Notes under the pieces: generated by a model
Told to the model about the DNA's origin: nothing
The model's input: only the letters and a program-made list of their open reading frames with translations
The model's database searches: none
Position numbers and translations under genes: made by a program
Assembly (NCBI GenBank): GCA_052033375.1
Contig: JBPOJQ010000004.1
Span: forward strand, 1 to 61,269
DNA from: Candidatus Magasanikiibacteriota bacterium
Lineage (GTDB): Bacteria; Patescibacteriota; Patescibacteriia; Magasanikbacterales; UBA922
Length of the DNA stretch: 61,269 nt
Direction: 5' to 3'
Shown here: positions 14,732-37,406 of the stretch, piece after piece
How the letters are laid out: each line of letters starts with the position of its first letter
How positions within the stretch are numbered: the first letter of the stretch is position 1

Positions 14732-17197
14732 TTATTTTCTAATGTCTGCTTTGAATTTTTCTGTAAGCATTGTTTCAACCACATGATGAGCGGCATCAAT
14801 CTCTGAAGCTTCCAGTGTCTTATCTCTCGACTGATAGGTAATCCGGTATGCCATACTCTTTTTCCCTTCGCCTACCTTTTTCCCTTCAAACACATCAAAC
14901 AATGTTACTGCGGTGATAAGTGGATGAGCTACAGTGAGTGCTGCATCTATATCTCGATGGAACACTGACGTTGGCACCACACACGCGACATCACGAACAA
15001 CAGCGGGATACACCGACAGTGAGCGATAATCCACATGCGGTGCGGAATATTCAGACAACACTCGTATATTTAATTCCGCATATGCGACCCGATCGACAAA
15101 TCCATACTCCTGTGCAATTTTCGGATGTAATTCATATACGTCACCCACATATTCACCTGATAGGGTTACCACTCTTGCGATTCGTCCTGGATGCTGTAAT
15201 GCCCCTGATCCAACTGTAGGCTCCAATGCTAGTGCAACTCCGAGCGACATTCCGACTTCTCGTACCGCTTCAGATACTACGAAGAATGGTGTGTGTTCAC
15301 CTTTTTTGAGATAGGCAATCCCAAGCATCACATCTTGTCGTGGTAATAAATCACTTCCACTCCCAGATACGCGCGGGCCAGCCTCCTCTTTCAGATAAAT
15401 TTTTCCAATCTCATATACCTTTATTTCATCATGCGTATGGGAATTACGTTCCACCAATTCTAATATATTCGGCAATAAACTCCGACGAAGATATGGACGA
15501 TCGCTTGCAATTGGATTATTGAGTTCAATATGAGCGGAAACATCCAATCGTAATAATTCAATCACTCGAGGTGAGATAAATGAATAATTGAGCGTCTCTG
15601 AAAATCCAAGTGTTGCGGAAAGTGTCGTGCGGATAGCTCTTTCTGCTATTTTCGTTTCATTCCGCTCTGGTGGCGTAATTGCAAATACAGGTAATTTCGT
15701 CTCCACATTTCCATAACCATACATCCGAGCTATTTCTTCGATAATGTCTTCAGGAATCGCAATATCTTTCGTCCCCCTCCAACTCGGTACTGTCACAGTA
15801 AGTGTTTCGTGTTCTTTTTTCCCCTGAATAGTGACGCCAAAACCAAGATTTTCTAAAATCCGCACACATTCTTTCGTCGGGATACTTGCTCCGATTTTAT
15901 TATCAATAAATTCTTTGGTGATACGTATCGGCCCAGTAAAGGTAGCGGGTTTTCCTTTTTCCGCAACAGTACTTACCACACGTGCACCTGGACATACTTC
16001 GAAAACTAATTCAATCGCTCGAGCCAGTGCAGGTAGACAATTGGTAGGATCCAGACTTTTCTCAAATCGAGCAGACGAATCCGTACGCAGCCCGAGTGCG
16101 GTCGTAGTTTTCCGTATTAATGTGGGATCGAAATGTGCTGCTTCAAAAATAATTGACGTGGTAGTTTCGGTTATTTCAGTTTCTTTCCCCCCCATAATTC
16201 CCGCGAGTGCAAGCGGTTTTTCACTATCCGCAATAACGAGCATATCTTCTGTCAGCCTTCGTTGTTTTCCATCAATTGTCACCAATTCTTCTCCTGGGCG
16301 TGCCCTTCTCACTGAAATTTCAACTTTTGATTTTTGATTTTTGATTTTTGCGCTGTCGAATGCGTGCATGGGTTGTCCCAAATCACACATTACAAAATTG
16401 GTAATATCAACAATATTATTAATTGGGCGAATTCCTATCGCACGAAGACGTGCTTGCATTTTTTCAGGAGACGGTCCGATGACAACACCCTCAAGTGCGA
16501 CTGCACTATATTTCATCGAGTCAGATACATTTTCAATAGTCACTTTTATTTTCTTTTCATTACCTTCCTTTATTTGGGCAACTGAATATGGTGCGCATTT
16601 CTTTCTATATTTTGCAGCAATTTCTCTTGCTATACCATAATGCCCCCATAGATCTGGCCTATGATTGACCGATTTATTATCAATTTCAATTACTACATCA
16701 TTTAATTCCAATGCCTCAGCAAGCGGAGTACCCGGTTTTGCTTTTATTTTTGACAAATCTGCAATTTCTTTTTCTTCTTTTTTTGGAAACATCTCCGCGA
16801 GACCTACTTCATCAGCACCGCAAATCATTCCATATGAATCCACGCCCCGAATTTTCGTTTGTTTTAATTCTACGAGCTCTCCTTCGCCATGCCATTTGAC
16901 ACGAGCACCAATTTTTCCAAGTATCACCTTCATTCCTTCGCGCACGTTTGACCCCCCGCATACAATCTGAATAATTTCAGTTCCTGCATCCACGTCACAA
17001 ATTTTGAGTGAATCAGCATTTTCATGTTTTCGAACTTTCTGTATGACACCCACTACTATATTTTCAAATGCATGGGACTGATGATGTATACCCTCCACTT
17101 CAACCGTAGACATGGTCAACGCTAAACCAAGTTCTTCAGGAGACAGAGAATCGGGAAGATCTACATATTGTTTGAGCCACTTATACGAAAGTAACAT
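14732..17197 (-). CDS. pheT: Phenylalanine--tRNA ligase beta subunit
   Basis: MLLSYKWL, tRNA-binding domain, NRPDLWGHYGIARE-like motif, GIRPINNIVDITN, GQPMHAFD, FDX-ACB C-terminus. Confidence 0.97.
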   Translation of the reverse strand: MLLSYKWLKQYVDLPDSLSPEELGLALTMSTVEVEGIHHQSHAFENIVVGVIQKVRKHENADSLKICDVDAGTEIIQIVCGGSNVREGMKVILGKIGARVKWHGEGELVELKQTKIRGVDSYGMICGADEVGLAEMFPKKEEKEIADLSKIKAKPGTPLAEALELNDVVIEIDNKSVNHRPDLWGHYGIAREIAAKYRKKCAPYSVAQIKEGNEKKIKVTIENVSDSMKYSAVALEGVVIGPSPEKMQARLRAIGIRPINNIVDITNFVMCDLGQPMHAFDSAKIKNQKSKVEISVRRARPGEELVTIDGKQRRLTEDMLVIADSEKPLALAGIMGGKETEITETTTSIIFEAAHFDPTLIRKTTTALGLRTDSSARFEKSLDPTNCLPALARAIELVFEVCPGARVVSTVAEKGKPATFTGPIRITKEFIDNKIGASIPTKECVRILENLGFGVTIQGKKEHETLTVTVPSWRGTKDIAIPEDIIEEIARMYGYGNVETKLPVFAITPPERNETKIAERAIRTTLSATLGFSETLNYSFISPRVIELLRLDVSAHIELNNPIASDRPYLRRSLLPNILELVERNSHTHDEIKVYEIGKIYLKEEAGPRVSGSGSDLLPRQDVMLGIAYLKKGEHTPFFVVSEAVREVGMSLGVALALEPTVGSGALQHPGRIARVVTLSGEYVGDVYELHPKIAQEYGFVDRVAYAELNIRVLSEYSAPHVDYRSLSVYPAVVRDVACVVPTSVFHRDIDAALTVAHPLITAVTLFDVFEGKKVGEGKKSMAYRITYQSRDKTLEASEIDAAHHVVETMLTEKFKADIRK
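16324..16350. repeat. Heptamer microsatellite (TTTTTGA)n inside pheT
   Basis: cttttga tttttga tttttga tttttg, encoding AKIKNQKSK. Confidence 0.85.
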
Positions 17198-17236
17198 ATT
17201 TTAATGTTGAAATTTGAGTTTTGAATTTAACTATAT

Positions 17237-18295
17237 CTAAAATTGTTCCAAAAAACTTAAACTCCCTGCATGGAGGTGCCGTATATCTTCGATCCCATAT
17301 TTCTGCATACACAAACGCATTGAGCCGAGACCGAATGCAAACCCTGTCCACTCTTTTGGATCCAATCCTCCAGCCTCAATGACTCGTGGATGCACCAATC
17401 CACATGGCAATGTTTCAATCCAACCACTATGTTTACACGCGCCACAGCCAACACCGCCACACACGAGACATTTCATATCCAACTCAAACCCAGGTTCGAC
17501 AAATGGAAAATAACCTGGACGTAAACGGACTTCAACGTCCTTGCGAAGAACGCCTCGTAATAATTCTTTCATGACCCCAATTAGATTTCCGACTGAAATA
17601 TTCTTATCAATCACCAAACCTTCCATTTGGTAAAACGTATGTTCATGACTTGCATCTGTCGACTCATTTCTAAAACAACGTCCTGAAACTACTGCACGCA
17701 AAGGTGCTCCATATTTTTGCATTGCACGAATCTGTACCGGACTTGTATGTGTACGCATGACCCACTGTGGGTGATCTTTGATAAAAAAAGTATCTTGCGA
17801 ATCACGAGCAGGATGATTTTTTGAAATATTGAGAGCATCAAAATTATAATATTCACTCTCGAGCTCCGGTCCATCAAGTAACACAAAACCCATTGAAGTG
17901 CAGAGATCTTCAAGCTCTGTGTGTACAATCGACATTGGGTGTAGATGACCTTTCTTTGCACCATGAAGACGTGGCTGTGTAACATCAATCATCTCACTCT
18001 CTCCGAGAGACTCCCACACCTTATTTTCAAACTCATGTTTTTTTGCTTCAAATTCAGATTCAATCGCTTTTTTTACTTCATTTATTTTTTGTCCAAAAAT
18101 CTTACGCTGGGCATCTGATATACCACCTTCACTGCTGATAATATGTTTTGTAAGTAAGGTAAATGTCCCTGTCTTTCTGGAAAAAAAACGATCACGTACT
18201 GCATCAAGCTCAGTAAGTGACGTCACTTTTTTGACTGCTGCAATTGCTTCTTTTTTAATTTTGTCTAATTGTTCAATCATATTTTTCAAGTTCAT
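17237..18295 (-). CDS. pheS: Phenylalanine--tRNA ligase alpha subunit
   Basis: GHLHP, NFDALNI..HPARD.QDTF, MRTHTSPVQIR, FPFVEP, GFAFGLG. Confidence 0.97.
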   Translation of the reverse strand: MNLKNMIEQLDKIKKEAIAAVKKVTSLTELDAVRDRFFSRKTGTFTLLTKHIISSEGGISDAQRKIFGQKINEVKKAIESEFEAKKHEFENKVWESLGESEMIDVTQPRLHGAKKGHLHPMSIVHTELEDLCTSMGFVLLDGPELESEYYNFDALNISKNHPARDSQDTFFIKDHPQWVMRTHTSPVQIRAMQKYGAPLRAVVSGRCFRNESTDASHEHTFYQMEGLVIDKNISVGNLIGVMKELLRGVLRKDVEVRLRPGYFPFVEPGFELDMKCLVCGGVGCGACKHSGWIETLPCGLVHPRVIEAGGLDPKEWTGFAFGLGSMRLCMQKYGIEDIRHLHAGSLSFLEQF

Positions 18296-18360
18296 GGCGA
18301 GAAAGCCGACGGTCGGTAGAACATATACATTCTCCTACGATTGGATTCTTTGCCATTGCT

Positions 18361-18379
18361 TGCCTGTCAGCAGACAGGG
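18361..18379. repeat. Short palindromic REP-like element between rseP and pheS
   Basis: cctgtc-agca-gacagg; resembles the cctgtctgccgacaggcagg-type repeats I recall from CPR genomes. Confidence 0.4.
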
Positions 18380-18394
18380 CTCTGAACTATAAAG

Positions 18395-19564
18395 TTAAAA
18401 TAATTTTGCAATATCTCTCCAGGTAACTACCACCACCAGTGCCATCAATAATACAAATCCAATCGTATGTGCGAGCTGTTCGTATTTCATAGAAACCGGA
18501 CGTCTGATAATTTTTTCAATGATAATAAAGAGGATTCTTCCACCATCGAGTGCTGGTATCGGCAAAATATTAATCGCAGCAAGACTCAATGAAAGCATCG
18601 CGATAACATTCAACACATAATGGAAACCTAATTTTGCACTCTGTCCCACAATCTGGGCAATACCCACCGGACCCGCGATATCAAACATAAGTCCATGTCC
18701 CGTAACAAGACTCACTATCAGATAATAAAATGAGACAAAGATAGTCACTAGCCCAATCCCTGCAGCAACAAAACCCTTGTATAGCGCAATATACCACGGA
18801 TATCTGATAATTCCCGCTTCCGTAATCGCTATTCCGAGGCGGGGTATCGTATCACCTGCTGCTATTACTGGACGAAGTTGTATATCGAGTTCTTCTTGAC
18901 CACGGACAATATGTACAACAACCTCTGTATCTCCGTGTTCTTGTATATATTCAATCAGATCACGCGCTCCTGCGACAGCGACCCCATCAACAGAAATAAT
19001 TTTGTCCCCAAACACCATACCAGCAGTGTCTGCTGGCAGCCCTTCTTCGACTGACTCGACGATTACACTTGGAGGCTCGACAATGTATGCGTGTTTATCA
19101 ACTCCTTGAGAAAGATCAGTAGGCAACCCAATCATAAACCCAAATCCAAGGACTACCGCTGCCAATAATACATTCATAATCACACCTGCTGAAAGCACGA
19201 GTATTCGTTTCCACGCTTTGTGATATCCAAAACTGTTTTGTTCTTGAGCTTTTTCACCATTTTCTCCTTTAATTCGGACAAATCCTCCTAATGGAAGCCA
19301 ATTCACCGACCAGAGCATGCCTGGAAACTCACCACTCTGTTCATTCCCTGCAACAGTCTCTTTGAGACTACTTTTCCCACGTCCCCATATCCATACTATT
19401 TTCTTAGTTTTTGGATCACGATACCACCCAAACGCACGAGGCGGATAGCCAAAACCGAATTCATGAACCTTGATACCAAATTTTTTTGCCGTAATGTAGT
19501 GTCCCCATTCATGTGCGATCACTAAAATACCTAAAATTACAATAAACAATACGATAGTTGTCAT
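18395..19564 (-). CDS. rseP: RIP metalloprotease RseP (M50 + PDZ)
   Basis: HEWGH, LPLGGFVRIKGE, LSAGVIMN, NILPIPALDGG. Confidence 0.95.
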   Translation of the reverse strand: MTTIVLFIVILGILVIAHEWGHYITAKKFGIKVHEFGFGYPPRAFGWYRDPKTKKIVWIWGRGKSSLKETVAGNEQSGEFPGMLWSVNWLPLGGFVRIKGENGEKAQEQNSFGYHKAWKRILVLSAGVIMNVLLAAVVLGFGFMIGLPTDLSQGVDKHAYIVEPPSVIVESVEEGLPADTAGMVFGDKIISVDGVAVAGARDLIEYIQEHGDTEVVVHIVRGQEELDIQLRPVIAAGDTIPRLGIAITEAGIIRYPWYIALYKGFVAAGIGLVTIFVSFYYLIVSLVTGHGLMFDIAGPVGIAQIVGQSAKLGFHYVLNVIAMLSLSLAAINILPIPALDGGRILFIIIEKIIRRPVSMKYEQLAHTIGFVLLMALVVVVTWRDIAKLF

Positions 19565-19677
19565 AAGAGAAGGTGTATTGACTAGAGACTTAAGTTACCC
19601 TACACTATTACTATACTCATACAGTATTCCATATATAGATCTTTTTTTCAATACTTGTTTTATTTATATTTAACTTT

Positions 19678-20247
19678 TTGAATATGCCTCTCTTAGCAAT
19701 TTTACTAATTGTTGCAGGTGTTATAGTGCTTTGGGTAATTGCTCTATACAACAGTCTTATTCGGTTACGCAATCGAACACAGGAAGGCTGGAGTGATATT
19801 GATGTACAGCTCAAACGACGTCATGATCTGATCCCGAATTTGATTGAAAGTGTCAAGGGATATATGAAACATGAGCGAGAACTGCTTGAAAATGTTACCA
19901 AATACCGAACTGCTGCAATGTCTGCCCAAGACAGCGGAGATACTAAAGCACTTGCCTCAGCTGAGAGCATGCTTGGAAGTACTCTCGGAAAATTACAGAT
20001 CGCTGTTGAAGCATATCCAGACCTCAAAGCAAATACGAATGTTGCACAATTGATGGATGAATTATCTGACACTGAAAACAAAATTCAAGCATCACGACGC
20101 TTCTACAACGGCATGGTACGTGATTTCAATACTAAAATTGAATCATTCCCAAATAACATGATTGCCGGTCAGCTCAAGTTCACTAAGTTTGAATATTTTG
20201 AAATTGAGGATGCGAAAGAGCGAGAGAATGTAAAAGTGCAGTTCTAA
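19678..20247 (+). CDS. lemA: LemA family protein
   Basis: YNSLIRLRN..WSDIDVQLKRRHDLIPNL, EAYPDLKAN, SRRFYNG. Confidence 0.95.
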   Translation: MNMPLLAILLIVAGVIVLWVIALYNSLIRLRNRTQEGWSDIDVQLKRRHDLIPNLIESVKGYMKHERELLENVTKYRTAAMSAQDSGDTKALASAESMLGSTLGKLQIAVEAYPDLKANTNVAQLMDELSDTENKIQASRRFYNGMVRDFNTKIESFPNNMIAGQLKFTKFEYFEIEDAKERENVKVQF

Positions 20248-20248
20248 A

Positions 20249-20760
20249 TACGTTCGAACTTACGAACTAGTGCCAAAAATACGAAATAATATGCGGGAGG
20301 GACATATTTATTACGAAGAAATGATTTGTTATATCCTGAATTAAGTTTTCGTATTAATGGTATTCTGTATGAAGTCGCTCGTGAATTAGGTGGAGGTCAT
20401 CAGGAAAAATATTATCAAAAAGCGGTGGCTATAGGATTGCAAAATCAACAAATAAAATTTCAAGAATAATTTTACGCTCCTCTCGCATTTCAAGGTGAAC
20501 AGGTGGAAAAATATTTTCTTGATTTTTTAGTAGAAGATAGCATTGTGATTGAACTCAAACGAGAATTATTCATACCTCGAAAAATTATTGAATAGACGTT
20601 TCGATACCTCCAAGCCTTGGATCTCCAACTCGGCATTATTGCCTGCTTTACTAATCAAGGTGCTATCATAAAGAGAATTATTAATCAGCGATCAGTAAAA
20701 TAAAACTACTTCTAAAATTAATTTTCATACTTTCGTATTTAGTTCGTGAGTTCGAACGTA
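20249..20760. mobile_element. Inverted-repeat-bounded GxxExxY cassette inserted between lemA and htpX
   Basis: Left end tacgttcgaacttacgaacta..aaatacgaaa (20249-20286) is the inverse of right end tttcgtatttagttcgtgagttcgaacgta (20731-20760). Confidence 0.7.
20291..20703 (+). pseudogene. GxxExxY (PD-(D/E)XK-like) protein pseudogene
   Basis: LRRNDLLYPELSFRINGILYEVARELGGGHQEKYYQKA..YFLDFLVEDSIVIELK..YLQALDLQLGII; in-frame TAA at 20467 and TAG at 20593; ATG 20291 is out of frame. Confidence 0.85.
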
Positions 20761-20772
20761 AAAGAAATAATT

Positions 20773-21654
20773 ATGTATTCCCAAATTGATTCAAACAAAC
20801 GAAAGACTAGAATGCTGATTGCAATTTTTTGTGCATTCATCATTGGACTCGGCGTGCTTGGTGCAAGTTATCTCGGCCTGGGATACGAGTCTGTTCTCCT
20901 CGCTTTCATCATCTCGATCATCATGACCCTAGTGTCGTATTACAAAGGTGATGCAATTGCACTCCGATCCACCGGTGCCAAGGAAATCAGCAAAGAAGAT
21001 AATCCCTATGTGTATCGCATGGTCGAAAACCTCGCGATTGCAAATGGTATGCCGACACCGCGTGTACACATTATTGATTCTCCTGCACTGAATGCATTTG
21101 CGACTGGACGAGATCCCGAACATGCTTCAATTGCAGTCACCACAGGATTGATCAGTGCGCTTGAAAACGAAGAACTCGAAGGAGTGCTTGCACACGAACT
21201 GTCACATGTGAAAAATTATGATATTCGCGTCATGACAATCGTTATTGTCCTGGTTGGCACCGTTACACTCCTCGCAGACATGTTTTTTCGATTCGGGCTC
21301 TTTGGAGGCAAACGAAATTCTGATAATAAGGGCGGCGGAGGAATTCTTGCTATTGTCGGACTAGTACTCATTATCCTCTCCCCTATCATCGCGGAACTTA
21401 TCAAGCTAGCAGTATCACGAAAACGTGAATATCTGGCTGATGCATCGGGTGCACTCATGACACGTTATCCCGAAGGGTTGGCAAAAGCATTGGAAAAAAT
21501 TCAGCAATCAAATATACCTCTCAAAACGGCAAATTCTGCGACTGCGCATTTGTTTATTTCAAATCCGTTCAAAGGAAAAATGTTTGCTAACGCGTTTTCA
21601 ACACATCCGCCGATTGAAGAACGAATTAAGAGATTAAGAGAACACGTAACTTAA
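20773..21654 (+). CDS. htpX: Zinc metalloprotease HtpX (M48)
   Basis: NAFATGRDP, GVLAHELSHVKNYD, SRKREYLAD, STHPPIEERI; start reassigned to MYSQI. Confidence 0.95.
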   Translation: MYSQIDSNKRKTRMLIAIFCAFIIGLGVLGASYLGLGYESVLLAFIISIIMTLVSYYKGDAIALRSTGAKEISKEDNPYVYRMVENLAIANGMPTPRVHIIDSPALNAFATGRDPEHASIAVTTGLISALENEELEGVLAHELSHVKNYDIRVMTIVIVLVGTVTLLADMFFRFGLFGGKRNSDNKGGGGILAIVGLVLIILSPIIAELIKLAVSRKREYLADASGALMTRYPEGLAKALEKIQQSNIPLKTANSATAHLFISNPFKGKMFANAFSTHPPIEERIKRLREHVT

Positions 21655-21684
21655 TCTTTCTTTCACTCAAGCATAAAAACTGAT

Positions 21685-22713
21685 GTGGATATACAAATAA
21701 ATAAAAAACCTTTCTGGCAATTACTTATTACTACCTCGATTTTAGTTGTCTTGATGCCACTACCAAGACTCGGTTGCTTTGATGGTTGTGAATGGCAAAT
21801 TGCACCACTTTTTTCATCGAGTGGATTGGGTGGTATCTTTTTTGTATGGCCACTTCTTATACCCTCAGCTTTCTACGGAATTTTTTATCTCTCGCTGTTG
21901 TGGATTACCAATCAACTCTCATGGATTACCCGGTCAAAAATACGTTGGTATGTGAATGTAGTCGCTATTGCACTCATTGGCGTCTTTTCTATAAACGCTT
22001 ATACTATCCATTTCAACAAAGATGTCCGCGATATATATGAAAGTTTAAAATCAAGATACCTTGTACTCCCTCGTATAACCATCGGGATGACCCGTGAAGA
22101 AGTGCTTCGTCTATACCCTGATGCGGTTCCTAAAGACTCAGTTTATGTGTCCTTTGATACAGAAGATTTCTTTATCCATCGTGAAGGGGGACTACAAGAC
22201 TGTTTATCATTCTCTGGAACATACAGTTGCTTTAAAGAAGATCGTGTGTATATTACTATTGCCCCTCGAGTACGGAAGTATGGCGGCACAGGTGAGATAC
22301 ATGATGATTATAGTTCTACTTTAAAAAAGTATACCCTTAGTGATCTAGAGGTGTGTAACAGAATTAACACAGCACCCTGGTATATGGGGTACCCCGATGT
22401 GCCTGGCTGTTTCCGCGCTCTCGCTAAGTCGACTGGCGATGATACCTTCTGTCTCCAGGCTTCAGGAGTTTTTGATAAACAATGCTTAGAAAATTTAGGG
22501 TGGACAACCGGACGTCTTGAGGTGTGCGAGAAAATTGGTCTTAAAGAAAAATTTAGCTACCAAGACAAGAGTGAATATTATAGAGACCTATCGCATTATA
22601 ACATGTGCATACTCCACGTTGCGGATAAGCAAAATGACGTCGCCATTTGTGAAAAATTAATTCATGATGATGATCGCAAACAACAATGCATAACGATAAT
22701 AGGTGGACGCTAA
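21685..22713 (+). CDS. Hypothetical membrane protein with Cys-rich C-terminal repeats
   Basis: Three to four N-terminal TM segments; repeated C..A....D...C / LEVCEKI / VAICEKLI..KQQCI units. Confidence 0.7.
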   Translation: MDIQINKKPFWQLLITTSILVVLMPLPRLGCFDGCEWQIAPLFSSSGLGGIFFVWPLLIPSAFYGIFYLSLLWITNQLSWITRSKIRWYVNVVAIALIGVFSINAYTIHFNKDVRDIYESLKSRYLVLPRITIGMTREEVLRLYPDAVPKDSVYVSFDTEDFFIHREGGLQDCLSFSGTYSCFKEDRVYITIAPRVRKYGGTGEIHDDYSSTLKKYTLSDLEVCNRINTAPWYMGYPDVPGCFRALAKSTGDDTFCLQASGVFDKQCLENLGWTTGRLEVCEKIGLKEKFSYQDKSEYYRDLSHYNMCILHVADKQNDVAICEKLIHDDDRKQQCITIIGGR

Positions 22714-22724
22714 TCGACATTCTT

Positions 22725-22760
22725 TTTTAAAACCCCCTCCAAATGGAGGGGGTTTTAAAA
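22725..22760. terminator. Bidirectional terminator
   Basis: ttttaaaaccccctcc-aaat-ggagggggttttaaaa, perfect 16-bp stem. Confidence 0.8.
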
Positions 22761-23091: not shown

Positions 23092-23093
23092 AT

Positions 23094-24458: not shown

Positions 24459-24541
24459 ATAGAAATTAATTTCGATTGATTTTAGAGTGAAATTAGTATA
24501 TACTACCCTACGCAGAAAAAGCAATCTTATGAGCTAATTTT

Positions 24542-27154: not shown

Positions 27155-27155
27155 T

Positions 27156-28409: not shown

Positions 28410-28527
28410 ATTACAAATTATTCTAATTGATCTAAAACTTCCACGGACAATAAGCGGTGACCAACGATGTTACTATCTACTTATTTCTTCGTTACTTACT
28501 GTTTGTGGATCGTTCCTAATGTATCAT

Positions 28528-29781
28528 ATGGATCGAAAGCGCTTACTTCTAATGATTGGTTTTCTCGGTATTTGTGTACTTCTCGGATTTGCAATTTATT
28601 GGGTTTTTTTTAGAAAAGCCCCTACGGGTACTGTACCTATCGAGACAGGTACACGAACTGATGGATCCACTTTTCCCCAGATAGGTGAGCGGGATACCCC
28701 GCCAATCACAGGCGGAAATACAACACTCCCCACTAATTCCCAACAGAATGGACAGACCGGGGGACAAACAGGTAGTATCGTTTCGCCAGATAGTATTACT
28801 CGACCAAATTCACAACCTCTTATTACCAAAACAGTCGATGTGAATGTGGGAAGCCCCAGTCCTGGACCACGAGGAGATGCACGATTTTATAATCGAAATG
28901 ATGGAAAATTCTATACTCTTGATCAAAATGGAGATGTCCGAGTATTAAGCGACACTGTCTTTTATAACGTGACTCAGGCAACATGGTCGCCTAAAACCAA
29001 TGAATCAGTTATTGAATATCCTGATGGATCAAATATTTACTATAATTTTGACACTAATACACAAGTAACTCTTCCAAAACACTGGGAATCTTTTTCTTTT
29101 TCTGAAGAAGGTGCCCGTATTACTGCAAAAAGCATGGGGCTCTCAGTTGATAATCGTTGGCTAATCACCAGTGATCCTACAGGTAATAACGTATCCCTCA
29201 TAGAACCTCTAGGGGACAATGCATCGAAAGTGATTGTAGATTGGTCACCAAATCGACAAGTAGTCGCACTCTCACTTACAGGAGACGAAATTGGAGGACA
29301 GCGGCAGGAAGTACTTCTAATCGGTCAAAATCACGAAAACTTCAAATCAATTGAAGTCGAAGGACGAGGTCTACAAACACAGTGGTCTCCTCAAGGAAGT
29401 AAATTACTTCATAGTGTACACAGCTCGCGAACTGATTACAAACCTGAGCTATGGATTGTGGATGCGAGTCCAGATACTGCTGGCTCCAACCGAAAACCAC
29501 TTGGTGTCAATACATGGGCATCCAAGTGTACAATGTCAGATGAGCGCACCGTGTATTGCGGAGTACCTTCTTCACTCGAAAGCGGTGCTGGATTTGCACC
29601 TGAGGTAGCCGACTTCACCCAAGATACGTTTTACCGCATAGATACAGTCACGGGAGTGCGAACAGAATTGGTTGTCGACGACGCACATGTCGTAGAATCT
29701 ATGTTTGTCAGCGGAGACGGAAGTACACTGTATTTCACTGATAAAAATCAAAGTGGATTATTCAGTATTCCGTTGAAATAA
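28528..29781 (+). CDS. Membrane-anchored beta-propeller-like (TolB/WD40-like) protein
   Basis: N-terminal TM, Gly/Thr linker, repeated WSP motifs (ATWSPK, VDWSPN, TQWSPQ); start reassigned to MDRKR. Confidence 0.75.
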   Translation: MDRKRLLLMIGFLGICVLLGFAIYWVFFRKAPTGTVPIETGTRTDGSTFPQIGERDTPPITGGNTTLPTNSQQNGQTGGQTGSIVSPDSITRPNSQPLITKTVDVNVGSPSPGPRGDARFYNRNDGKFYTLDQNGDVRVLSDTVFYNVTQATWSPKTNESVIEYPDGSNIYYNFDTNTQVTLPKHWESFSFSEEGARITAKSMGLSVDNRWLITSDPTGNNVSLIEPLGDNASKVIVDWSPNRQVVALSLTGDEIGGQRQEVLLIGQNHENFKSIEVEGRGLQTQWSPQGSKLLHSVHSSRTDYKPELWIVDASPDTAGSNRKPLGVNTWASKCTMSDERTVYCGVPSSLESGAGFAPEVADFTQDTFYRIDTVTGVRTELVVDDAHVVESMFVSGDGSTLYFTDKNQSGLFSIPLK

Positions 29782-29864
29782 ATATGACTGTGAATAATGA
29801 GTGGTAAGTAAATACAATTCATTTTCTAACTTACAACTTACTACGTAGCATCTGCCACTTCTCT

Positions 29865-30518
29865 ATGCCCCACGAACTTACACACAAAAAAATCTACGCT
29901 GTTTTTTTCCCTGCTATTCTTCTCGGAGGACTCGCACTTTTTATTCAGATTATTCGGTATCAGCCGCTCAATCCTACCAATACCGCATCTGAAAAAAATA
30001 CTCCTACTGAATTCAATATTCCAATCCTCCCAACAGACCCTGTTATTGGAAGCAAAAAATCACCACTCACAGTCGTTGCATTCGAAGATTTCTCTTGCAG
30101 TGCGTGTCGATCTCTCCAGGAATTATTTTCAAAGGTGCAGCAAAAATATCCTGAAAAAATAAAAATGATCTGGAAAGGTCTCCCAGTAAATGATTTTCCC
30201 TACCCTTCTATTAACGCACTACGATATGGCATATGTGCGCACGAACAAGAACAATTCGAAAAATTCTCAGCTTACGCTTTTTCCAATAATGACAATCTCT
30301 CGGATGCAACTCTTGAAAAAATTTCTGAAGAAATCACCATGGATGCCGAAGAATTGGCCTCATGCCTTGCGTCAGACCGCCCTGACCGCATCATTGAATT
30401 GAACAAACAAATTGCCAATACATTGAATATTCAATCTGTCCCTACGTTGTTTATAGATAATACCCAAATACAAACACCCGAATCACTCGCAGACTGGGAA
30501 CATCTACTCGGGATATGA
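29865..30518 (+). CDS. DsbA-family thioredoxin-fold protein
   Basis: TM anchor; VAFEDFSCSAC (CxxC); cis-Pro SVPTLFID. Confidence 0.9.
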   Translation: MPHELTHKKIYAVFFPAILLGGLALFIQIIRYQPLNPTNTASEKNTPTEFNIPILPTDPVIGSKKSPLTVVAFEDFSCSACRSLQELFSKVQQKYPEKIKMIWKGLPVNDFPYPSINALRYGICAHEQEQFEKFSAYAFSNNDNLSDATLEKISEEITMDAEELASCLASDRPDRIIELNKQIANTLNIQSVPTLFIDNTQIQTPESLADWEHLLGI

Positions 30519-32557
30519 TATTCAAATCTTTTTTTTCCTCGATATTTTTTTTATCCCTCATTCTCCTTGGACTCTGTAGTAGTGCCGAAGTTTTTGCGCT
30601 CAAAAAAATTGGCGAAGCCTGTAATGATGCAAATGAATGCGCAAGTGACAATTGTCAAGATTCATTTTGTACCTGTGGAGATGGTGCCCCATCTGCGCAC
30701 TGTGCGGCTGCGTATGGAGGTACCGAAGCTGACTGGAAATGTGTAGATTCGGGTGAAGATCCTGATTCGACTCGTAATGAATGGAATTTTTGTAGAAAAG
30801 CAGATTATCTCAGTAGTCTTCCCAAGAAATCGACTACTGACGTGATATATCCAGTTGAAAAAAAGATACTCATGGGCTTTCCCTGTGCTGCAGAAGATGT
30901 ATGTCTTTCTGCAAATGGACACGCCCTCAATACCTGTGAAGAGACAAGTATTGATAGCAAATCGACACAAGGTGACCCACACTACGATCCCTGGTATACC
31001 CCTGGGAAAAAACTCAGTGTATGCGCTGCTCCTCAAAATTATTACGCCCCAAGCGTATGTGAAAAACAGTATGGAACAGGAACATGGTTTTTCACACAAG
31101 GCACTGGTGATTTGAACGGAATTGACGTCTGTCAAAAAGAAGGTGCTCCGCCTATTACCACTCTAGAACAGATGAGGAAAAATAATATGAAAGATGAAAA
31201 TAACGTGGAGGCGAATTTTCTGGGTTTTGATATTTCAATTGAAGCACCCGAGCTCATAGTCCCTGAAACAAAAATTAAAATACCTGGAGTGATTTTTTCC
31301 AAAATTACCAAGGAAAGTCATATCACGACTGATGAATCGGGAACTACCTGGCTGAATATCCCCTTTCTTGGAGAATATATCTCATCAATCTATAAATACA
31401 GCGTCGGACTGATTTCTTTGATTGCAGTCATGACCATGATTATTTCTGGTGTACAAATTATCACTTCCGCTGGAAATAGTGAAGCAATCAGCGGAGCAAA
31501 ACACCGTATTATCTCATCGGTCATTGCAATCATACTCACCGCAGGATCATATACCATTCTTTACACCGTTAATCCTGATTTGGTGAATTTGAAGAATTTG
31601 AAGATACTCGTTGTACCTGGTCAACAACTCGAAATCCCAGAAGAGAATGATGAGTCCACTCAAAATTTACCCACAGACGCGGAAGGTAACGTGATAAACT
31701 CTATCCAAACCACATCTGTGACAGTGCAGACCGAATCAGGAGCTGTTACGCAGATTGTACAAACAGGAGCAGATGGTCCGGTGACTAAAAAACCAACATC
31801 GCCGAACGAAATTACAGAAAAAGAATTCAGAAAAGACACTATCAATGGTATAAAAGCCAATGGATGGGAAATTTGGCAGAGCCTAAGCGAGGAACAAAAA
31901 AACACAGTCCTACCTCATCTTTTTATCAAGACTGGAAGTTGTCTTACCAATGAGTTAATCAAAACAGGTGTAACCAGCTGTGGCTGGAAAAACTATTTAT
32001 TACACAGTGCTGTAGTTCCTTTATTCCAACAGGCGGTACAAAACGCACAAAAATATGGTTTCCAATTATGTCCCGGAAGTACATATCGAGATCTTGATGA
32101 AGAAACTCAGTTGTGGAATACAGGAATTGTTGCACGTTTCAGCCACAATGACACTGGCTGGAGTTCAAACCAAGGAAAAATTGCAAAGCCTTCCTGCACA
32201 GCCCCCCACTCTTCAGGTGGCTCAGTAGATGTTGCACTAAGACGAATCGGGGAAGAAAAAAATGTCACTAACTTTTCTGGACAAATGAATTCTCTCCAAC
32301 AAGGAATCGCTTATTATTCAAATACAGCTGATGCAAACGTATACGCAACTATACTAGAACAAATTATGTATGAATCAGGATGGGTACGTTACTGTCAAGA
32401 AAAATGGCATTTTGAAGCAGTAGTCACTACCAGATATTCAAAATGGACCAATAAGGAGGCGCGCTGTGTCATGCATTGGGATAATTGGATAATTCCTATC
32501 CCCGATGCAGTAAAACAGAAAGCTAATACTCTAACCACTCAACCAATTTTCCCGTAG
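30515..32557 (+). CDS. Cys-rich CPR-type pilin fused to an M15 (VanY/VanX-like) peptidase
   Basis: Signal peptide; Cys-rich N-region; EYISSIYKYSVGLISLIAV..SAGNSEAISGAKHRI..ILYTVNPDL pilin motif; STYR, APHSSGGSVDV, EKWHFE. Start overlaps the dsbA stop (ATGA). Confidence 0.8.
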   Translation: MIFKSFFSSIFFLSLILLGLCSSAEVFALKKIGEACNDANECASDNCQDSFCTCGDGAPSAHCAAAYGGTEADWKCVDSGEDPDSTRNEWNFCRKADYLSSLPKKSTTDVIYPVEKKILMGFPCAAEDVCLSANGHALNTCEETSIDSKSTQGDPHYDPWYTPGKKLSVCAAPQNYYAPSVCEKQYGTGTWFFTQGTGDLNGIDVCQKEGAPPITTLEQMRKNNMKDENNVEANFLGFDISIEAPELIVPETKIKIPGVIFSKITKESHITTDESGTTWLNIPFLGEYISSIYKYSVGLISLIAVMTMIISGVQIITSAGNSEAISGAKHRIISSVIAIILTAGSYTILYTVNPDLVNLKNLKILVVPGQQLEIPEENDESTQNLPTDAEGNVINSIQTTSVTVQTESGAVTQIVQTGADGPVTKKPTSPNEITEKEFRKDTINGIKANGWEIWQSLSEEQKNTVLPHLFIKTGSCLTNELIKTGVTSCGWKNYLLHSAVVPLFQQAVQNAQKYGFQLCPGSTYRDLDEETQLWNTGIVARFSHNDTGWSSNQGKIAKPSCTAPHSSGGSVDVALRRIGEEKNVTNFSGQMNSLQQGIAYYSNTADANVYATILEQIMYESGWVRYCQEKWHFEAVVTTRYSKWTNKEARCVMHWDNWIIPIPDAVKQKANTLTTQPIFP

Positions 32558-32623
32558 TTTTCCTTGTGTTCAATGCCTGTCCATGGGTATACTTATATCT
32601 TCTAAGTCTACTAACCCAGGCAT

Positions 32624-33964
32624 ATGGTCGTGAAAACAAAAATAATCTTCACCTGTTCCAAGTGCGATGCACAATACCAGAAGTGGATTGGAAGATGTCT
32701 CGAATGTGGTTCATGGGGCACCGTCACGGAAACAGCTGAACGAATCCCAGAAAATAATACGACGGTTTCCACTTCTCAGCCCGCATCAATTCACACACTC
32801 TCAAGTGTTGATTCAACTACCACTAAACGGACACAAACTACGATTTCGGAACTTGATCGTGTGCTCGGCGGCGGAATTGTCCCTGGTAGTTTTATGCTCC
32901 TTGGCGGAGAGCCTGGTATTGGCAAATCCACACTAGCGCTCCAGCTCGCAGCTACAATCCCCTCTTCTCTCTATATCTCTGCAGAAGAATCGGTAAGTCA
33001 GGTAAAAATGCGGGCTGACCGATTGAATATTACCTCGACCACACTTTCCCTCGCGAATGAAACCGCGGTCGAAAAAATTATTTCAACTATACAAACTCAC
33101 AAACCTACGCTTGCGATTATTGATTCTATCCAGACTATTTCAAGCGAACAGGTGCAAGGTGAAGCTGGATCAGTGTCTCAGGTACGCGCGTGCGCCACAT
33201 TACTTCTTGAGGTAGCAAAACAATCCGGAATTCCGATTGTGATTATTGGACACGTGACGAAAGAAGGTAGTGTCGCAGGACCAAAAACACTTGAACATCT
33301 GGTCGATACAGTACTTTATCTTGAAGGAGATCAGTATCACACGTATCGAATTTTACGAGCAGTAAAAAATAGATTTGGCGCGACTGATGAAGTAGGTATT
33401 TTTGAAATGGAAGGAGTAGGTCTTATCTCGGTTGCAAATCCTTCGGCGTCCTTGCTTCGTGAGCGCGGAGAAGATATGCCTGGGAATGTGGTGACATGTA
33501 TCATGGAGGGTACTCGCCCACTCTTGGTCGAAGTACAAGCACTCGTTCATAAAACGACGTTTGGCTATCCGGTGCGCAAAGCAAGTGGATTTGATTTGAA
33601 CCGTCTACACCTACTCACTGCAGTACTTGAGAAACGTGCAGGGCTTACGCTTGCACAGTATGACATTCACCTGAATATTGTGGGTGGAATAAAAATTCAA
33701 GAACCTGCAGCTGACCTCGCAGTGTGCCTTGCAATTGCAAGCTCATACAAAGATAAGTCACTTGGTCGCGACACGATTGTGTTTGGTGAAGTAGGATTGG
33801 GCGGAGAAGTGAGATCCGTACGACACAATGAAAAACGAATAAAAGAATCAATTGATCTCGGTATGAAGCGCATCATTGTTCCTGCAGGGAAAAAAATTAC
33901 TGAACAGCCTGGTGTGAATATGATTGAAGTAAAGAATATTGAAGAGCTTATTAAGAAGACGTGA
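32624..33964 (+). CDS. radA: DNA repair protein RadA/Sms
   Basis: CSKC..KWIGRCLECGSWGT zinc finger, GGEPGIGKST, KNRFG, GEVGLGGEVR. Confidence 0.97.
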   Translation: MVVKTKIIFTCSKCDAQYQKWIGRCLECGSWGTVTETAERIPENNTTVSTSQPASIHTLSSVDSTTTKRTQTTISELDRVLGGGIVPGSFMLLGGEPGIGKSTLALQLAATIPSSLYISAEESVSQVKMRADRLNITSTTLSLANETAVEKIISTIQTHKPTLAIIDSIQTISSEQVQGEAGSVSQVRACATLLLEVAKQSGIPIVIIGHVTKEGSVAGPKTLEHLVDTVLYLEGDQYHTYRILRAVKNRFGATDEVGIFEMEGVGLISVANPSASLLRERGEDMPGNVVTCIMEGTRPLLVEVQALVHKTTFGYPVRKASGFDLNRLHLLTAVLEKRAGLTLAQYDIHLNIVGGIKIQEPAADLAVCLAIASSYKDKSLGRDTIVFGEVGLGGEVRSVRHNEKRIKESIDLGMKRIIVPAGKKITEQPGVNMIEVKNIEELIKKT

Positions 33965-33968
33965 CTAA

Positions 33969-34498
33969 ACGCGTCCCTCCCCTTTTAGGGGAGGGACGCG
34001 TGAGGTCTGCCGAAGCTTCGACTTTACTCTATACTAAAATTTAACAAGGAGGGATTATGCCGTATGTTTATACAAACAAACGTTCTTTAATTAATAGAAG
34101 AAAACTGTTACGTAGAAGACAGACCAAAGCAGAACAAATTCTATGGAAAGAATTACGTGGTAGAAAATCTGGAGTCGTATTTAGAAGACAATATGGCATC
34201 GGATCATATATTACTGATTTTTATTGTCATGAATTTAGATTAGTGATCGAGCTTGATGGACCAATTCATGACGAACAAAAAGAATATGACCGACGACGAG
34301 AAAATTTTCTAAAAAAGCAAGGATTCACAATACTACGATTTAAAAATGATGAAGTGTTATTTGAAAGAGAAAGTGTAATAGAGAAAATAAAAAGTGCTTG
34401 TAATATTTCTCCTCAGTAAACTACGCAAATATTATTATACTCACTTATAATAATATCCTTCGAACGACCTCACCCTTCCCTCTCCTGAGAGGAGAGGG
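33969..34498. mobile_element. DUF559 gene flanked by inverted REP-like hairpins
   Basis: 33975-34007 versus reverse complement of 34466-34498: 27/33 identical, with a compensatory C-G/T-A stem pair. Confidence 0.7.
34057..34419 (+). CDS. DUF559 family (Vsr-like) endonuclease
   Basis: LRRRQTKAEQILWKELR..FRRQYGIGSYITDFYC..LVIELDGPIH..YDRRRENFL..GFTILRFKNDEV; SD aaggagg. Confidence 0.92.
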   Translation: MPYVYTNKRSLINRRKLLRRRQTKAEQILWKELRGRKSGVVFRRQYGIGSYITDFYCHEFRLVIELDGPIHDEQKEYDRRRENFLKKQGFTILRFKNDEVLFERESVIEKIKSACNISPQ

Positions 34499-34505
34499 TT
34501 TAATT

Positions 34506-34631
34506 CAATACAAACAAAAATCCACACTCGCCCTCCCGCGATGACTCCCATATATGAGATTCATTGCGTGATTCGAGTGTGGATTTTGTATTCGAGACGC
34601 GAGCGGTCGCCGAAGCGATCCGCCCGCTCTC
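34506..34631. other. Two hairpins 3' of ORFan 34638-35054
   Basis: aaaatccacactcg (34517-30) pairs with cgagtgtggatttt (34574-87), with an inner stem; the second hairpin 34594-34631 has a cUUCGg loop on the minus strand. Confidence 0.65.
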
Positions 34632-34637
34632 TTCCCA

Positions 34638-35054
34638 TCAGTGGAAGTGCATCGGACGCCGGCTGCTGGGCTGGATCACCGAGACCTTCGGCTCACCCTG
34701 CTCGAGCTCCTCCTGCCAGAGGAGGAGCTTCTCGTGCGAGATGCCGAGGTTCTCCATGAGGAACCTCGAGACCCGCGGGTGCGTACGGAAGCTCCGGTAG
34801 ATGGTGCGCGAGATGTCATCGACCTTGGACTGCCGACCCACCTTGAGACCTCCGATGTCGAAAGTACCCCTGAACGAATCGTACAGGCCCTTCGACGCCA
34901 CCTGTTCATGGCCGATCACCCTGACGAGGCTACTGCAGATCTCGGGCGAGAGATGCTGGCTCGAGCCGGGAGGTCCTCCGACGAGACGGACCGCAGGACC
35001 ATGGGTCCCGAGGAAGGTCCCCGTGATCGCACACGTTCGACTGACTGACTTCAT
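34638..35054 (-). CDS. GC-rich ORFan (138 aa)
   Basis: ATG 35054 after aagggg; consensus promoter upstream; 39/60 G+C at 34681-34740. Confidence 0.65.
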   Translation of the reverse strand: MKSVSRTCAITGTFLGTHGPAVRLVGGPPGSSQHLSPEICSSLVRVIGHEQVASKGLYDSFRGTFDIGGLKVGRQSKVDDISRTIYRSFRTHPRVSRFLMENLGISHEKLLLWQEELEQGEPKVSVIQPSSRRPMHFH

Positions 35055-35140
35055 TGGTATACCCCTTGATGTTGTGCTTTTATGTGACGGCGTGACGGCC
35101 GAATCCACCCCAAAGCACGGAAAGAGTAGACATAGGTGCG

Positions 35141-35169
35141 AGTATAAACAAAAAATCCCAATCTGTCAA
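35141..35169 (-). promoter_or_regulatory. Near-consensus sigma70 promoter
   Basis: TTGACA-17 nt-TATACT. Confidence 0.75.
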
Positions 35170-35190
35170 TGCAAACTGGGGAAAAACATG

Positions 35191-35291
35191 AAATCCAAAA
35201 CTAAAAACTCAAATATCAAAACTTCAGCTTAAATCTCGAATTTTGACTTTTTAGTTGGAGCTTTGAGTTTTGAACTTTAAATTTTGAGTTT
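35191..35291. repeat. Inverted array of degenerate heptamers directly after the recG stop
   Basis: A-rich arm aaatccaaaactaaaaactcaaatatcaaaa and T-rich arm ttttgactttttagttggagctttgagttttgaactttaaattttgagttt. Confidence 0.65.
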
Positions 35292-37406
35292 CTACTCCAT
35301 ATGCACCCGAGCTTCCCACTCTTGTACCCGCTCTTTGAGCTCTGGAAACTTCTCAAAATCCATACCTCGAGCTGATTCCCTCGCAGCCCTGATAATATCC
35401 TGATCACGCATGGTCGCGAGCCGGAGTTCTTCCATTCCACTCTGCGCCGTACCATATACTTCTCCCGGGCCTCTAGTTTCAAGATCATATTCTGCAAGCA
35501 CAAATCCATCAAGTGTTTTCGCAAAGTACTCTAATCGACCTTTTGATACTACATTCTCAACCTCGGTAAACAAAATACAATACGACTGATACTCCGCTCG
35601 CCCTACTCTCCCACGGAATTGGTGCAGCTGAGCTAACCCAAATCTCTCAGCTCCCTCAATCATCATAATTGATGCATTGGGAATATTTACTCCAACTTCA
35701 ATTACTGAGGTTGAGACTAATATGTCAGTTTCTCCTGCAGCAAATTTTTTCATGATTCCTTCTTTTTCTTTTGATTTCATTTTTCCATGCAAATACCCAA
35801 CTCGGAGATCTGGAAATATTTTCGTTGACAACTTTTCGTATTCAGACAATACAGTTTTCTTTTCTGATACCAGACTTACATTTTCGCCTTCTTTTGTTTT
35901 CTGTTCTATCAACGGACACACGACAAATACTTGTCGTCCTTTTTCTACTTGCTCTCTAATAAATCCATAGGCCTTTTCTCTCTTATTCGGTTCAACGAGT
36001 CTCGTAATAATATCTTTTCTCCCCGCTGGTTTTGTCTTGATATACGATACATCGAGATCACCATACAAGGTCAGTGCGTACGAGCGTGGAATTGGTGTTG
36101 CAGTCATGGATAAAAAATGCGGATACATTCCTTCCATACCAGACTTATCACGAATTGTTTTTCTTTGTTCCACCCCAAATCGATGTTGCTCGTCGATCAC
36201 CACCAGCCCTAATTGGTGAAACTGTGTATCCTCAGTCAATAATGCGTGAGTACCGATAACTAAATCAATTAATCCCTCATTAATCTGTTTTTTTACTTCT
36301 TGTTTCTCTAATTTTCTCGATTTACTTTCGGCTTCATGCACTTTCGACTTTCGACTTTCGACTTGAGAACCTGTGAGAAGTCCAATACTTATCTTATCAC
36401 CAAATAGTTTTATTAGAGTCTCATAGTGCTGCGTCGCCAAAATTTCTGTCGGCGCCATAATGACTGATTGATATCCATTCAAAAAACTCAAATACGCAGA
36501 CAATCCAGCAACAATTGTTTTTCCAGACCCCACGTCTCCTTGCAATAGACGATTCATCGGTGAACCCTGCCCAATATCTTGGAAAATTTCCCATGCTGAT
36601 TTCTTCTGATCTACCGTTAATTCAAATGGTAGTGATTGTACAAACTCACGAATTTCTTTTTCCTTGAATCCAATATGTGGTGCGTGTTGTCTTGCACTCG
36701 ACTGTCGAATCAATTCTGCTCGAAGTTGCAATATGAACAATTCACCAAACTTAAGACGGCGCTCAGCGCACACTCTTTCTTCATGATTTTCTGGAAAATG
36801 AATTTTTTGTATTGCTTCAGATAACGTTATTAGTTTATTTTCTACAAGAATACTGTGCGGAATCCATTCTGTAATTTGCTCTGCAAGCGGAAGTACTTGC
36901 TCTACAAGAAACCTCATTTGTTTTTGTGTAACTCCTGATGTAAGCGGATACATAGGTACAATACGCGCGGTGTGTGTCGCCTGTTTGTCTTCTCGTACAC
37001 GTTCATACGCAGGACTAGTCATATGTGTCCCAAATACATCTTCTTTTATGGCACCCGACAGATACACCTCGTCCCCCACTTTCAATATTTTTGCAATAAA
37101 CGGCTGCCCAAACCAAATCACCCGGATCACGTCAGTCTCGTCCCGAACTACCGCTTCAGTAATCATTGTGCGTTTGCGAGGACTTCGTTTATTTGCGATT
37201 AATTCAATCGTGCCTTTAATCGTCAGATCTACCCCTGGCATAACATTCGCAATCGGTACGACTGATCGATAATCTTCGTATCGAAAAGGAAAATGAAATA
37301 ATATATCTTGTGCTCTAATTATCCCAAGAACATTCAATTTCTTTTCAAGATTTTTTCCTACACGATGGAGTTCGGATACTGGAGTTGTGAGGCGAAGCGC
37401 GGACAT
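35292..37406 (-). CDS. recG: ATP-dependent DNA helicase RecG
   Basis: DILFHFPFRYED, LQGDVGSGKT, IDEQHRFG, MTATPIPR, LAQLHQFRGRVGR. Confidence 0.97.
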   Translation of the reverse strand: MSALRLTTPVSELHRVGKNLEKKLNVLGIIRAQDILFHFPFRYEDYRSVVPIANVMPGVDLTIKGTIELIANKRSPRKRTMITEAVVRDETDVIRVIWFGQPFIAKILKVGDEVYLSGAIKEDVFGTHMTSPAYERVREDKQATHTARIVPMYPLTSGVTQKQMRFLVEQVLPLAEQITEWIPHSILVENKLITLSEAIQKIHFPENHEERVCAERRLKFGELFILQLRAELIRQSSARQHAPHIGFKEKEIREFVQSLPFELTVDQKKSAWEIFQDIGQGSPMNRLLQGDVGSGKTIVAGLSAYLSFLNGYQSVIMAPTEILATQHYETLIKLFGDKISIGLLTGSQVESRKSKVHEAESKSRKLEKQEVKKQINEGLIDLVIGTHALLTEDTQFHQLGLVVIDEQHRFGVEQRKTIRDKSGMEGMYPHFLSMTATPIPRSYALTLYGDLDVSYIKTKPAGRKDIITRLVEPNKREKAYGFIREQVEKGRQVFVVCPLIEQKTKEGENVSLVSEKKTVLSEYEKLSTKIFPDLRVGYLHGKMKSKEKEGIMKKFAAGETDILVSTSVIEVGVNIPNASIMMIEGAERFGLAQLHQFRGRVGRAEYQSYCILFTEVENVVSKGRLEYFAKTLDGFVLAEYDLETRGPGEVYGTAQSGMEELRLATMRDQDIIRAARESARGMDFEKFPELKERVQEWEARVHME
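36341..36366. repeat. Heptamer microsatellite (CTTTCGA)3 inside recG
   Basis: ctttcga ctttcga ctttcga cttga, encoding QVESRKSKV. Confidence 0.85.

Follow-up and report, generated by a model that had tools for sequence, protein, structure and literature searches.

In-frame heptamer repeat arrays in pheT and recG of a Magasanikbacterales bacterium, members of a class of A-rich arrays in Patescibacteria

Introduction

Two essential genes on a 61,269-nucleotide contig of an ultra-small Candidatus Magasanikiibacteriota bacterium (JBPOJQ010000004.1, assembly GCA_052033375.1; the whole contig is called the window in what follows), namely pheT and recG, each contain a short lysine-rich segment encoded in frame by a perfect tandem array of a seven-nucleotide unit. 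The two tracts are part of a class of arrays that extends across Patescibacteria, A-rich, about four to five units or 25–35 nucleotides (nt) long and conforming to TCRAARN, and it is the DNA repeat, not the peptide, that persists. Comparison of related genomes indicates that arrays within genes hold unchanging sites in loops or strands that tolerate them and that arrays between genes are mobile or ephemeral. On the best reading, the genic arrays did not enter this genome recently, and they do not serve as on/off switches. We lean, with a confidence little better than even, toward regarding them as persistent DNA-level heptamer modules in which homogenisation acts within the array and selection lets only open frames through. 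An earlier note on this stretch had instead seen selfish heptamer repeats of one family colonising permissive loops of the two enzymes.

The genome under study (G000; 965 kb in 24 contigs, 41% GC, the window being contig C7) was compared with nine congeners (G001–G009) and with a member of another genus (G021). Tandem arrays were called by Tandem Repeats Finder, the identity of open reading frames (ORFs) was assigned by Pfam, and AlphaFold2 (AF2) models of PheT and RecG were built on alignments of relatives.

Perfect Heptamer Arrays in Two Essential Genes

The gene pheT (14732-17197, minus strand) encodes a phenylalanyl-tRNA synthetase beta chain of 821 residues, in which Pfam recognises tRNA_bind, B3_4, B5, a catalytic-like domain and FDX-ACB, and whose closest named relative, from a Candidatus Magasanikbacteria metagenome-assembled genome, is 48% identical. 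Its perfect array occupies 16325-16350 and reads (TCAAAAA)x3.7 on the coding, minus strand and TTTTGAT x3.7 on the plus strand; if the degenerate outer units are counted, it extends over 16317-16351 as GCAAAAA TCAAAAA TCAAAAA TCAAAAG TTGAAAT. The in-frame translation, AKIKNQKSK, makes up residues 283-291 and falls within the B3/4 domain. In the AF2 model, residues 283-292 form the turn joining strands 277-281 and 291-298, and the mean predicted local distance difference test (pLDDT) score of residues 281-290 is 85, against 93 in the blocks on either side. The loop is four residues longer than that of S. haemolyticus PheT (2RHS).

The array in recG (gene at 35292-37406, minus strand; 704 residues with wedge, DEAD and Helicase_C domains in Pfam) lies at 36340-36364, where the coding, minus strand reads (GTCGAAA)x3.6, alias TCGAAAG, and the plus strand ACTTTCG x3.6; it translates in frame to VESRKSKV, residues 349-356. 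RecG exceeds T. maritima RecG (1GM5) by 15 residues and E. coli RecG (9WM0) by roughly as many. Relative to the T. maritima protein, the extra residues (R352-L366; 36309-36353, minus strand) occupy the stretch that joins the strand after motif Ia to the helix preceding GTHAL, and they overlap both the array and a low-confidence loop, residues 353-362, which in the AF2 model sits just C-terminal of the array peptide with pLDDT below 50. The earlier note had placed both perfect period-7 arrays within 1-2 nt of these positions, had quoted the peptides HAFDSAKIKNQKSKVEISVR and LLTGSQVESRKSKVHEAESKSRKLEKQEVK, which are indeed found in the PheT and RecG translations, and had estimated excesses of about 5 and 15 residues, which come out about right.

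Three units amount to 21 nt or seven codons, and every position of the unit passes through all three codon positions; an array that evolves in concert would therefore have no truly synonymous sites. For this reason the intact pheT array could be the best-conserved DNA of its gene with no need for a function at the nucleic acid level. No inverted partner was found within 300 nt of the pheT or the recG array, and a hairpin structure of the kind found in Rickettsia palindromic elements (RPE) was accordingly rejected for the genic arrays.

Further perfect genic arrays in this genome lie in leuS (AAGTTCA x3.3) and prmC (CAATCTT x3 and ACTTTCG x2.7), and the C-terminal tail of a DnaK-like protein contains a shorter run, ACAAGGA x2.6, within an imperfect CAAGGAA x4.4 array.

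A Non-random Class in the Genome and the Phylum

The arrays are a real, non-random and over-represented class. With a threshold of at least 12 self-matches and perfect arrays only, the genome holds eight period-7 arrays, whereas 20 order-3 Markov simulations gave 0.3 on average and never more than 2; seven is the genome's commonest perfect tandem period (eight arrays, compared with three of period 6, one of period 9 and two of period 12). It is barely credible, then, that lysine-rich loops with an AT-rich codon bias merely look periodic. AAA codons do dominate at 41% GC, and K-x-K in the pheT loop is kept even in decayed copies; however, beyond the eight arrays against 0.3 simulated, the peptide is a three-frame reading of one heptamer, and the codon choices within the repeats follow the unit in three separate lineages. 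Chance and codon bias were both discarded on the Markov simulations together with the DNA of the orthologues.

A scan of the genome for three TCRAARN units with two mismatches tolerated returned 33 loci; most of the permuted units used as controls gave 0-15, although one near-shifted control gave 29. Nineteen of 28 inspected loci are intergenic or a few codons from an ORF end, often as inverted pairs; the other nine lie within long ORFs, so that pheT and recG belong to a genic minority. In seven of these nine the A-rich strand is the coding strand. Units containing TCA are readable only in that orientation because the complement of every tested one contains TGA; the remaining two loci use TCG units, and the complement of TCGAAAG is stop-free.

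Of the single heptamer family postulated earlier, the common membership of the pheT and recG arrays in the over-represented, loose TCRAARN consensus stands, but exclusivity does not: the intergenic regions of contigs C22 (10623-10758, 13794-13847 and 14234-14260) and C10 (22903-22933) contain long arrays of a second family, ACTTACC/AGTAAGT, the largest with about 12 units. Arrays of this second family form an inverted pair upstream of a 377-residue ORF.

Across 301 sampled Patescibacteria genomes, four-unit TCRAARN arrays occur in 56, far above the reversed-unit control, with TCAAAAG, TCAAAAA, TCAAAAT, TCAAAGT, TCGAAAT and TCGAAAG as the recurring units. Two of the genomes, G090 and G114, contain 19-26 near-identical 27-nt copies of TCAAAAGTCAAAGGTCAAAAGTCAAAA, which in G114 form inverted pairs 110-210 nt apart directly behind a stop codon.

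Persistence and Decay at the pheT Site

The PheT proteins of all nine congeners (68-78% identity) have a loop of the same length as that of the genome under study, and a four-unit array of one constant length occupies the site in all ten species. It is a perfect (TCAAAAG)x4 in G001, G008 and G004, is two changes off in G006, and has decayed to varying degrees in G005, G002, G003, G009 and G007. In G021, whose PheT is 51% identical, the site reads TTGAAAG TCAAAAG TCAAAAG TCAAAAG, one degenerate unit followed by three perfect ones. The relatives thus encode the peptide with heptamer periodicity, a point on which the earlier proposal could have been refuted and was not, and a constant length in all nine congeners and another genus is at odds with a recent colonisation of pheT.

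When G001 is compared with G008 or with G004, all 28 nt of the array agree within a surrounding 900-nt region of 72% identity; the array ranks 1-2 of 875 windows, the next best window reaching 89%, and the island of identity is coextensive with the array, the flanks diverging right at its edges. Identical residues use the same codon in 9 of 10 cases inside the array, against a fraction of 0.41-0.55 elsewhere. A functional cis-element, such as a set of cooperative binding sites for a protein that recognises 7-bp repeats, a signal of the DNA-uptake type or an unstructured RNA tract with YC spacing, might leave such an island and such an excess of codon identity, and it could also explain why a few units recur across distant families, why arrays of at least four units are frequent, and why arrays lie within a few nucleotides of stop or start codons. 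We nevertheless consider it quite improbable: the array decays at the background, average rate among the nearest relatives of G000 (79% identity between G000 and G005, rank 368 of 875 windows), units vary by locus and by species at one locus, sister species dispense with intergenic copies, and there is neither a known partner nor a match to an Rfam family. A scan of the window with Rfam returned four tRNAs only and nothing at the arrays.

The TCAAAAA run of the genome under study differs from the inferred ancestor by a G-to-A change at unit position 7 in three units, which yields V-to-I, S-to-N and one silent change. The identical change is seen at single units in G006 and G003. Because unit position 7 varies independently in G006, G003, G002 and G005, where the changes are conservative V/I/L and S/N/T replacements, the concerted change was downgraded as a proof of conversion.

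A 7-nt unit shifts the reading frame when gained or lost, and perfect repeats are a classic substrate for slippage. The earlier note had accordingly regarded both loci as possibly slippage-prone, which finds no support, and one might picture contingency loci at which gain or loss of 7 nt toggles pheT or recG by phase variation. This we hold to be very improbable, since the genes are essential or housekeeping, the arrays lie mid-gene, the pheT length is constant across ten species and hence unchanged over genus-level divergence, and no indel occurs in the contigs of two independent samples. In the Logan contigs (assembler contigs) of the public runs X1-X4, at about 6x depth, where rare alleles are invisible, neither array showed a copy-number variant in the form of an indel; in the second, independent sample, from aquaculture, the contigs carry the pheT array unchanged.

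A Recombining recG and a Variable Loop

At the recG site the unit differs among species in the same register: GTCGAAA x3 in the genome under study and nearly so in G009, a perfect GTTCAAA x4 in G005, and in G003 an exact ATCCAAA-GTTCAAA alternation repeated twice, with a period of 14. The array is degenerate in G007 and G002 and absent from G004 and G006, where the alignment is ambiguous. The loop peptides vary with the unit (VESRKSKV compared with SSKFKVQ), and loop length ranges within the genus from 13 to 31 residues; the G005 gene is about 30 nt longer than those of G004 and G006, approximately the size of its array. In G008 the corresponding segment (L037:2527-2640, equivalent to the loop at window positions 36309-36366) holds an in-frame palindrome, GTTCTAGAGACG ... 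CGTCTCTAGAAC, and no heptamer array. The RecG loop takes several kinds of small insert.

RecG residues 421-570 are 100% identical to those of G003, and over residues 331-390, which bear the array, identity is 87-95% with G009 and 62-77% with G003. The gene is a recombination mosaic, and one that points to frequent homologous exchange among species of the genus. The array region is common to G000 and G009 and lies inside this mosaic, which speaks against the recent colonisation of recG that had been suggested. Taken together with the pheT comparisons, the alignments indicate that genic arrays are inherited vertically or travel, flanks included, when congeners exchange DNA by homologous recombination.

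A 535-nt contig of run X1 that matches 36325-36362 has a similar ACTTTCG array between unrelated flanks. It represents another locus or another organism of the same wastewater sample.

Unit Turnover in leuS and prmC

The leuS site reads AAGTTCA x3 in the genome under study and in G007, is one change off in G003, and is AATTTCA x2 followed by AAGTTCA in G002; G008, G004 and G006 hold decayed copies of equal length. In G009, whose divergent leuS gene has AAGTCAA x3.5, the unit is that of TCAAAAG. The LeuRS of this species (L071) is only 58% identical to that of G000, against 88-98% for the other congeners compared, which suggests a gene replacement; an array is nevertheless kept at the site. The prmC segment is 7-nt periodic in four of five species compared, each with its own unit (ACTTTCG, ACTTACC, GTACRRC and TTTCNNN); in the fifth, G005, the period is about 8 nt (ATTTCTNA).

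Different units hold orthologous recG, leuS and prmC sites, so that a genic array outlasts its unit at a locus, the change of unit being apparently block-wise. At these three loci species differ unit by unit rather than site by site, and the 7-nt period is retained. Among the relatives compared, the leuS and prmC arrays alter protein length by 0-2 residues. Such little or no excess in comparable arrays does not sit with the earlier view of heptamer insertions as a gain in length.

Heptamer Blocks Between Genes

The spacer between pheS and pheT (17198-17236, minus strand) consists of 39 nt of degenerate AAAYTCA heptamers. In six congeners it measures only 2-6 nt, which marks a block of about 37 nt as species-specific, and G009 and G007 have a heptamer-armed hairpin upstream of pheT instead. 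Behind recG, a hairpin of about 105 nt (35188-35294, minus strand; minimum free energy -29.3 kcal/mol, z-score -2.2), whose arms are arrays of TCAAARN heptamers, begins at the stop codon. Only G000 and G009 have it in full, with a short form in G008, and five congeners lack it. From these distributions, intergenic heptamer arrays are gained and lost as whole blocks between sister species, often as inverted pairs directly behind a stop codon. The earlier idea of a selfish gain of heptamers therefore survives for intergenic DNA, where blocks come and go, but not for the pheT and recG arrays, which are not recent.

The heptamer hairpin stands between the recG stop codon and a terminator-like hairpin (35141-35180, minus strand; CCCAGTTTG..CAGATTGGG followed by a T run) that overlaps a promoter match, TTGACA-17-TATACT. 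Both hairpin and promoter match are conserved in all congeners, and the near-consensus promoter sits in the loop and stem of the hairpin; terminator and promoter thus seem to be packed into a single compact element. The heptamer hairpin is unlikely to be the recG terminator, given relatives that lack it, and is better seen as an extra because the conserved terminator-like hairpin follows in all congeners.

These intergenic blocks bring into view a selfish or mobile element: each genic array would then be a solitary arm of a small hairpin resembling a miniature inverted-repeat transposable element (MITE), or a pre-formed module of about 30 nt, written into a permissive loop by active insertion or by templated copying. 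We think this unlikely, but it is not without substance. The presence or absence of whole blocks in sister species (the 37-nt pheS-pheT block and the 105-nt recG hairpin), the 19-26 TCAAAAGTCAAAGGTCAAAAGTCAAAA modules of G090 and G114, some as inverted pairs behind a stop codon, the (TCAAAAG)x4 array at the pheT site of G021, which is not a sister lineage, and the excess of about 30 nt, close to the array size, in recG of G005 over G004 and G006 are all as such an element would have it. Set against them, no target-site duplication, defined ends or transposase were found, units vary among the loci of a given genome, the arrays in leuS and prmC replace sequence that was already there, protein length changing by 0-2 residues in the relatives compared, the pheT array is stable in all congeners, and the genic arrays lack an inverted partner. 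For a stepwise origin in situ, a candidate proto-repeat is AAGTTCAAAGT, which encodes K-F-K-V.

Other Features of the Window

Three further features of the window were noted. At 20249-20760, between lemA-like and htpX-like ORFs, lies a small broken gene of the GxxExxY type (PD-(D/E)xK-like), interrupted by stop codons and bounded on its two sides by 20-nt inverted ends, which read ACGTTCGAACTTACGAACTA and a nearly exact complement of it; a relationship of this cassette to the heptamer arrays was rejected, as its arm unit, CGAACT, is different. A perfect 9-nt repeat, TCTCACGGT x2.9, at 48787-48812 lies in a 141-residue ORF and encodes SHGSHGSHG followed by HGHGHH, a His/Gly-rich stretch. Positions 1188-1480 hold a 135-nt tandem repeat of 2.1 copies with 79% matches.

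Proposed Mechanism

In the reading we favour, of persistent heptamer modules homogenised within each array, DNA copying within the array in a 7-nt register would homogenise the units without net change in length, by way of misaligned synthesis or short-patch conversion as candidate routes. Selection would merely remove states that contain a stop or break the frame, leaving a harmless hydrophilic peptide, and peptides such as SKIKNQK and SKVESRK would be by-products. The period-14 pattern of G003 and the paired AATTTCA units of G002 are the best hints of such intra-array copying.

Several observations weigh against this reading. The three pheT G-to-A changes of the genome under study may be independent transitions rather than a conversion, and no length or within-population variants of the arrays were seen in the low-depth contigs. 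The PheT tree does not place G021 as the sister lineage of the genus, although its array and array site match those of the congeners, and G001, with its perfect array, is sister to G009, whose array is decayed. A single origin of the pheT array in an ancestor shared with G021 was rejected because the tree gives no sister placement, and the pattern as a whole is hard to account for by simple descent; the G021 array in particular would seem a better fit to re-insertion, transfer or selection at the DNA level. Furthermore, the modules at some 20 loci in G090 and G114 indicate that copying between loci occurs in the phylum. The reading also gives no reason for a register of 7 nt.

A more far-reaching proposal, which we would call speculative and rather doubtful, is that Patescibacteria possess an active, sequence-aware process that writes or rewrites TCRAARN modules of about four heptamers and so dictates these peptides of essential proteins. 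Templated short-patch copying between arrays, or a molecular drive fuelled by recombination or uptake, are candidates for it, and it would account for pheT modules in non-sister lineages, for an island of identity in saturated DNA and for recurrence at about 20 loci in other families.

Relation to Known Repeat Systems

Heptanucleotide repeats are familiar in bacteria: three tandem types are reported from Calothrix PCC7601, and Xanthomonas and Nostoc carry GGGNATC repeats. Such repeats are mostly intergenic, with a preference for four units and a location near ORF ends (Rehm et al., 2015; PMC4692102). A 2007 survey, as cited there, found heptameric simple sequence repeats (SSRs) over-represented in bacteria (PMC4692102). 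The present arrays resemble these heptanucleotide SSRs in their tandem 7-nt unit, here in 3.7 and 3.6 perfect copies, and in being dispersed genome-wide on both strands, in about four units and within about 50 bp of ORF ends. Unlike GGGNATC, the units TCAAAAA and TCGAAAG are A-rich, with 0-2 G, no G-tracts and no possible G-quadruplex, and unlike the published heptanucleotide SSRs they form in-frame arrays within essential genes, which occupy orthologous sites in different species while the unit turns over. Our literature search returned no description of heptamer repeats of this kind for Patescibacteria. The heptamer class is thus known, and its conserved in-frame form in essential genes appears to be undescribed.

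Other repeat systems offer partial parallels. Rickettsia palindromic elements are palindromes of 100-150 bp inserted as units, in frame, into housekeeping proteins. Here, too, repeat DNA is read through in housekeeping proteins and tolerated in surface loops; in contrast, the genic arrays are direct repeats of 21-28 nt with no inverted partner, sometimes with no length excess, and old. Of the presence and absence typical of RPE, pheT offers none, its array being in all congeners, and recG offers an absence in G004 and G006 where the alignment is ambiguous. The contingency SSRs of Haemophilus and Neisseria are likewise perfect short coding repeats with a unit that is not a multiple of three, but the present copy number is constant across species with no variants seen in contigs, and residues 283-291 of 821 in PheT and 349-356 of 704 in RecG are unlike the usual place of contingency repeats, near the 5' end of surface or virulence genes.

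Uptake signal sequences and DNA uptake sequences are short over-represented motifs that are tolerated in permissive coding frames and are possibly subject to molecular drive. An over-represented motif in both orientations, with inverted pairs behind genes, recalls them, in an analogy by distribution alone; the density here is much lower (tens per Mb), and an array takes the place of a single word. Intergenic inverted arms around a short spacer, gained and lost between species, are shared with MITE-like hairpin elements, from which the present blocks differ in that their arms consist of heptamer arrays; neither an autonomous partner nor a target duplication was identified for them.

Implications

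If our reading is true, pieces of essential proteins throughout the phylum would be shaped by a DNA repeat process and not by protein selection, and the arrays would represent a natural case of three-frame reading within one repeat. It would also offer a possible explanation of how a loop that varies at the protein level can contain the best-conserved nucleotides of its gene. For the old question of why 7-nt repeats are over-represented in bacteria, pheT, recG, leuS and prmC provide concrete loci, and annotators and phylogeneticists should be prepared for such tracts in marker genes of the candidate phyla radiation, as places sensitive to the reading frame and as characters that converge or recombine.

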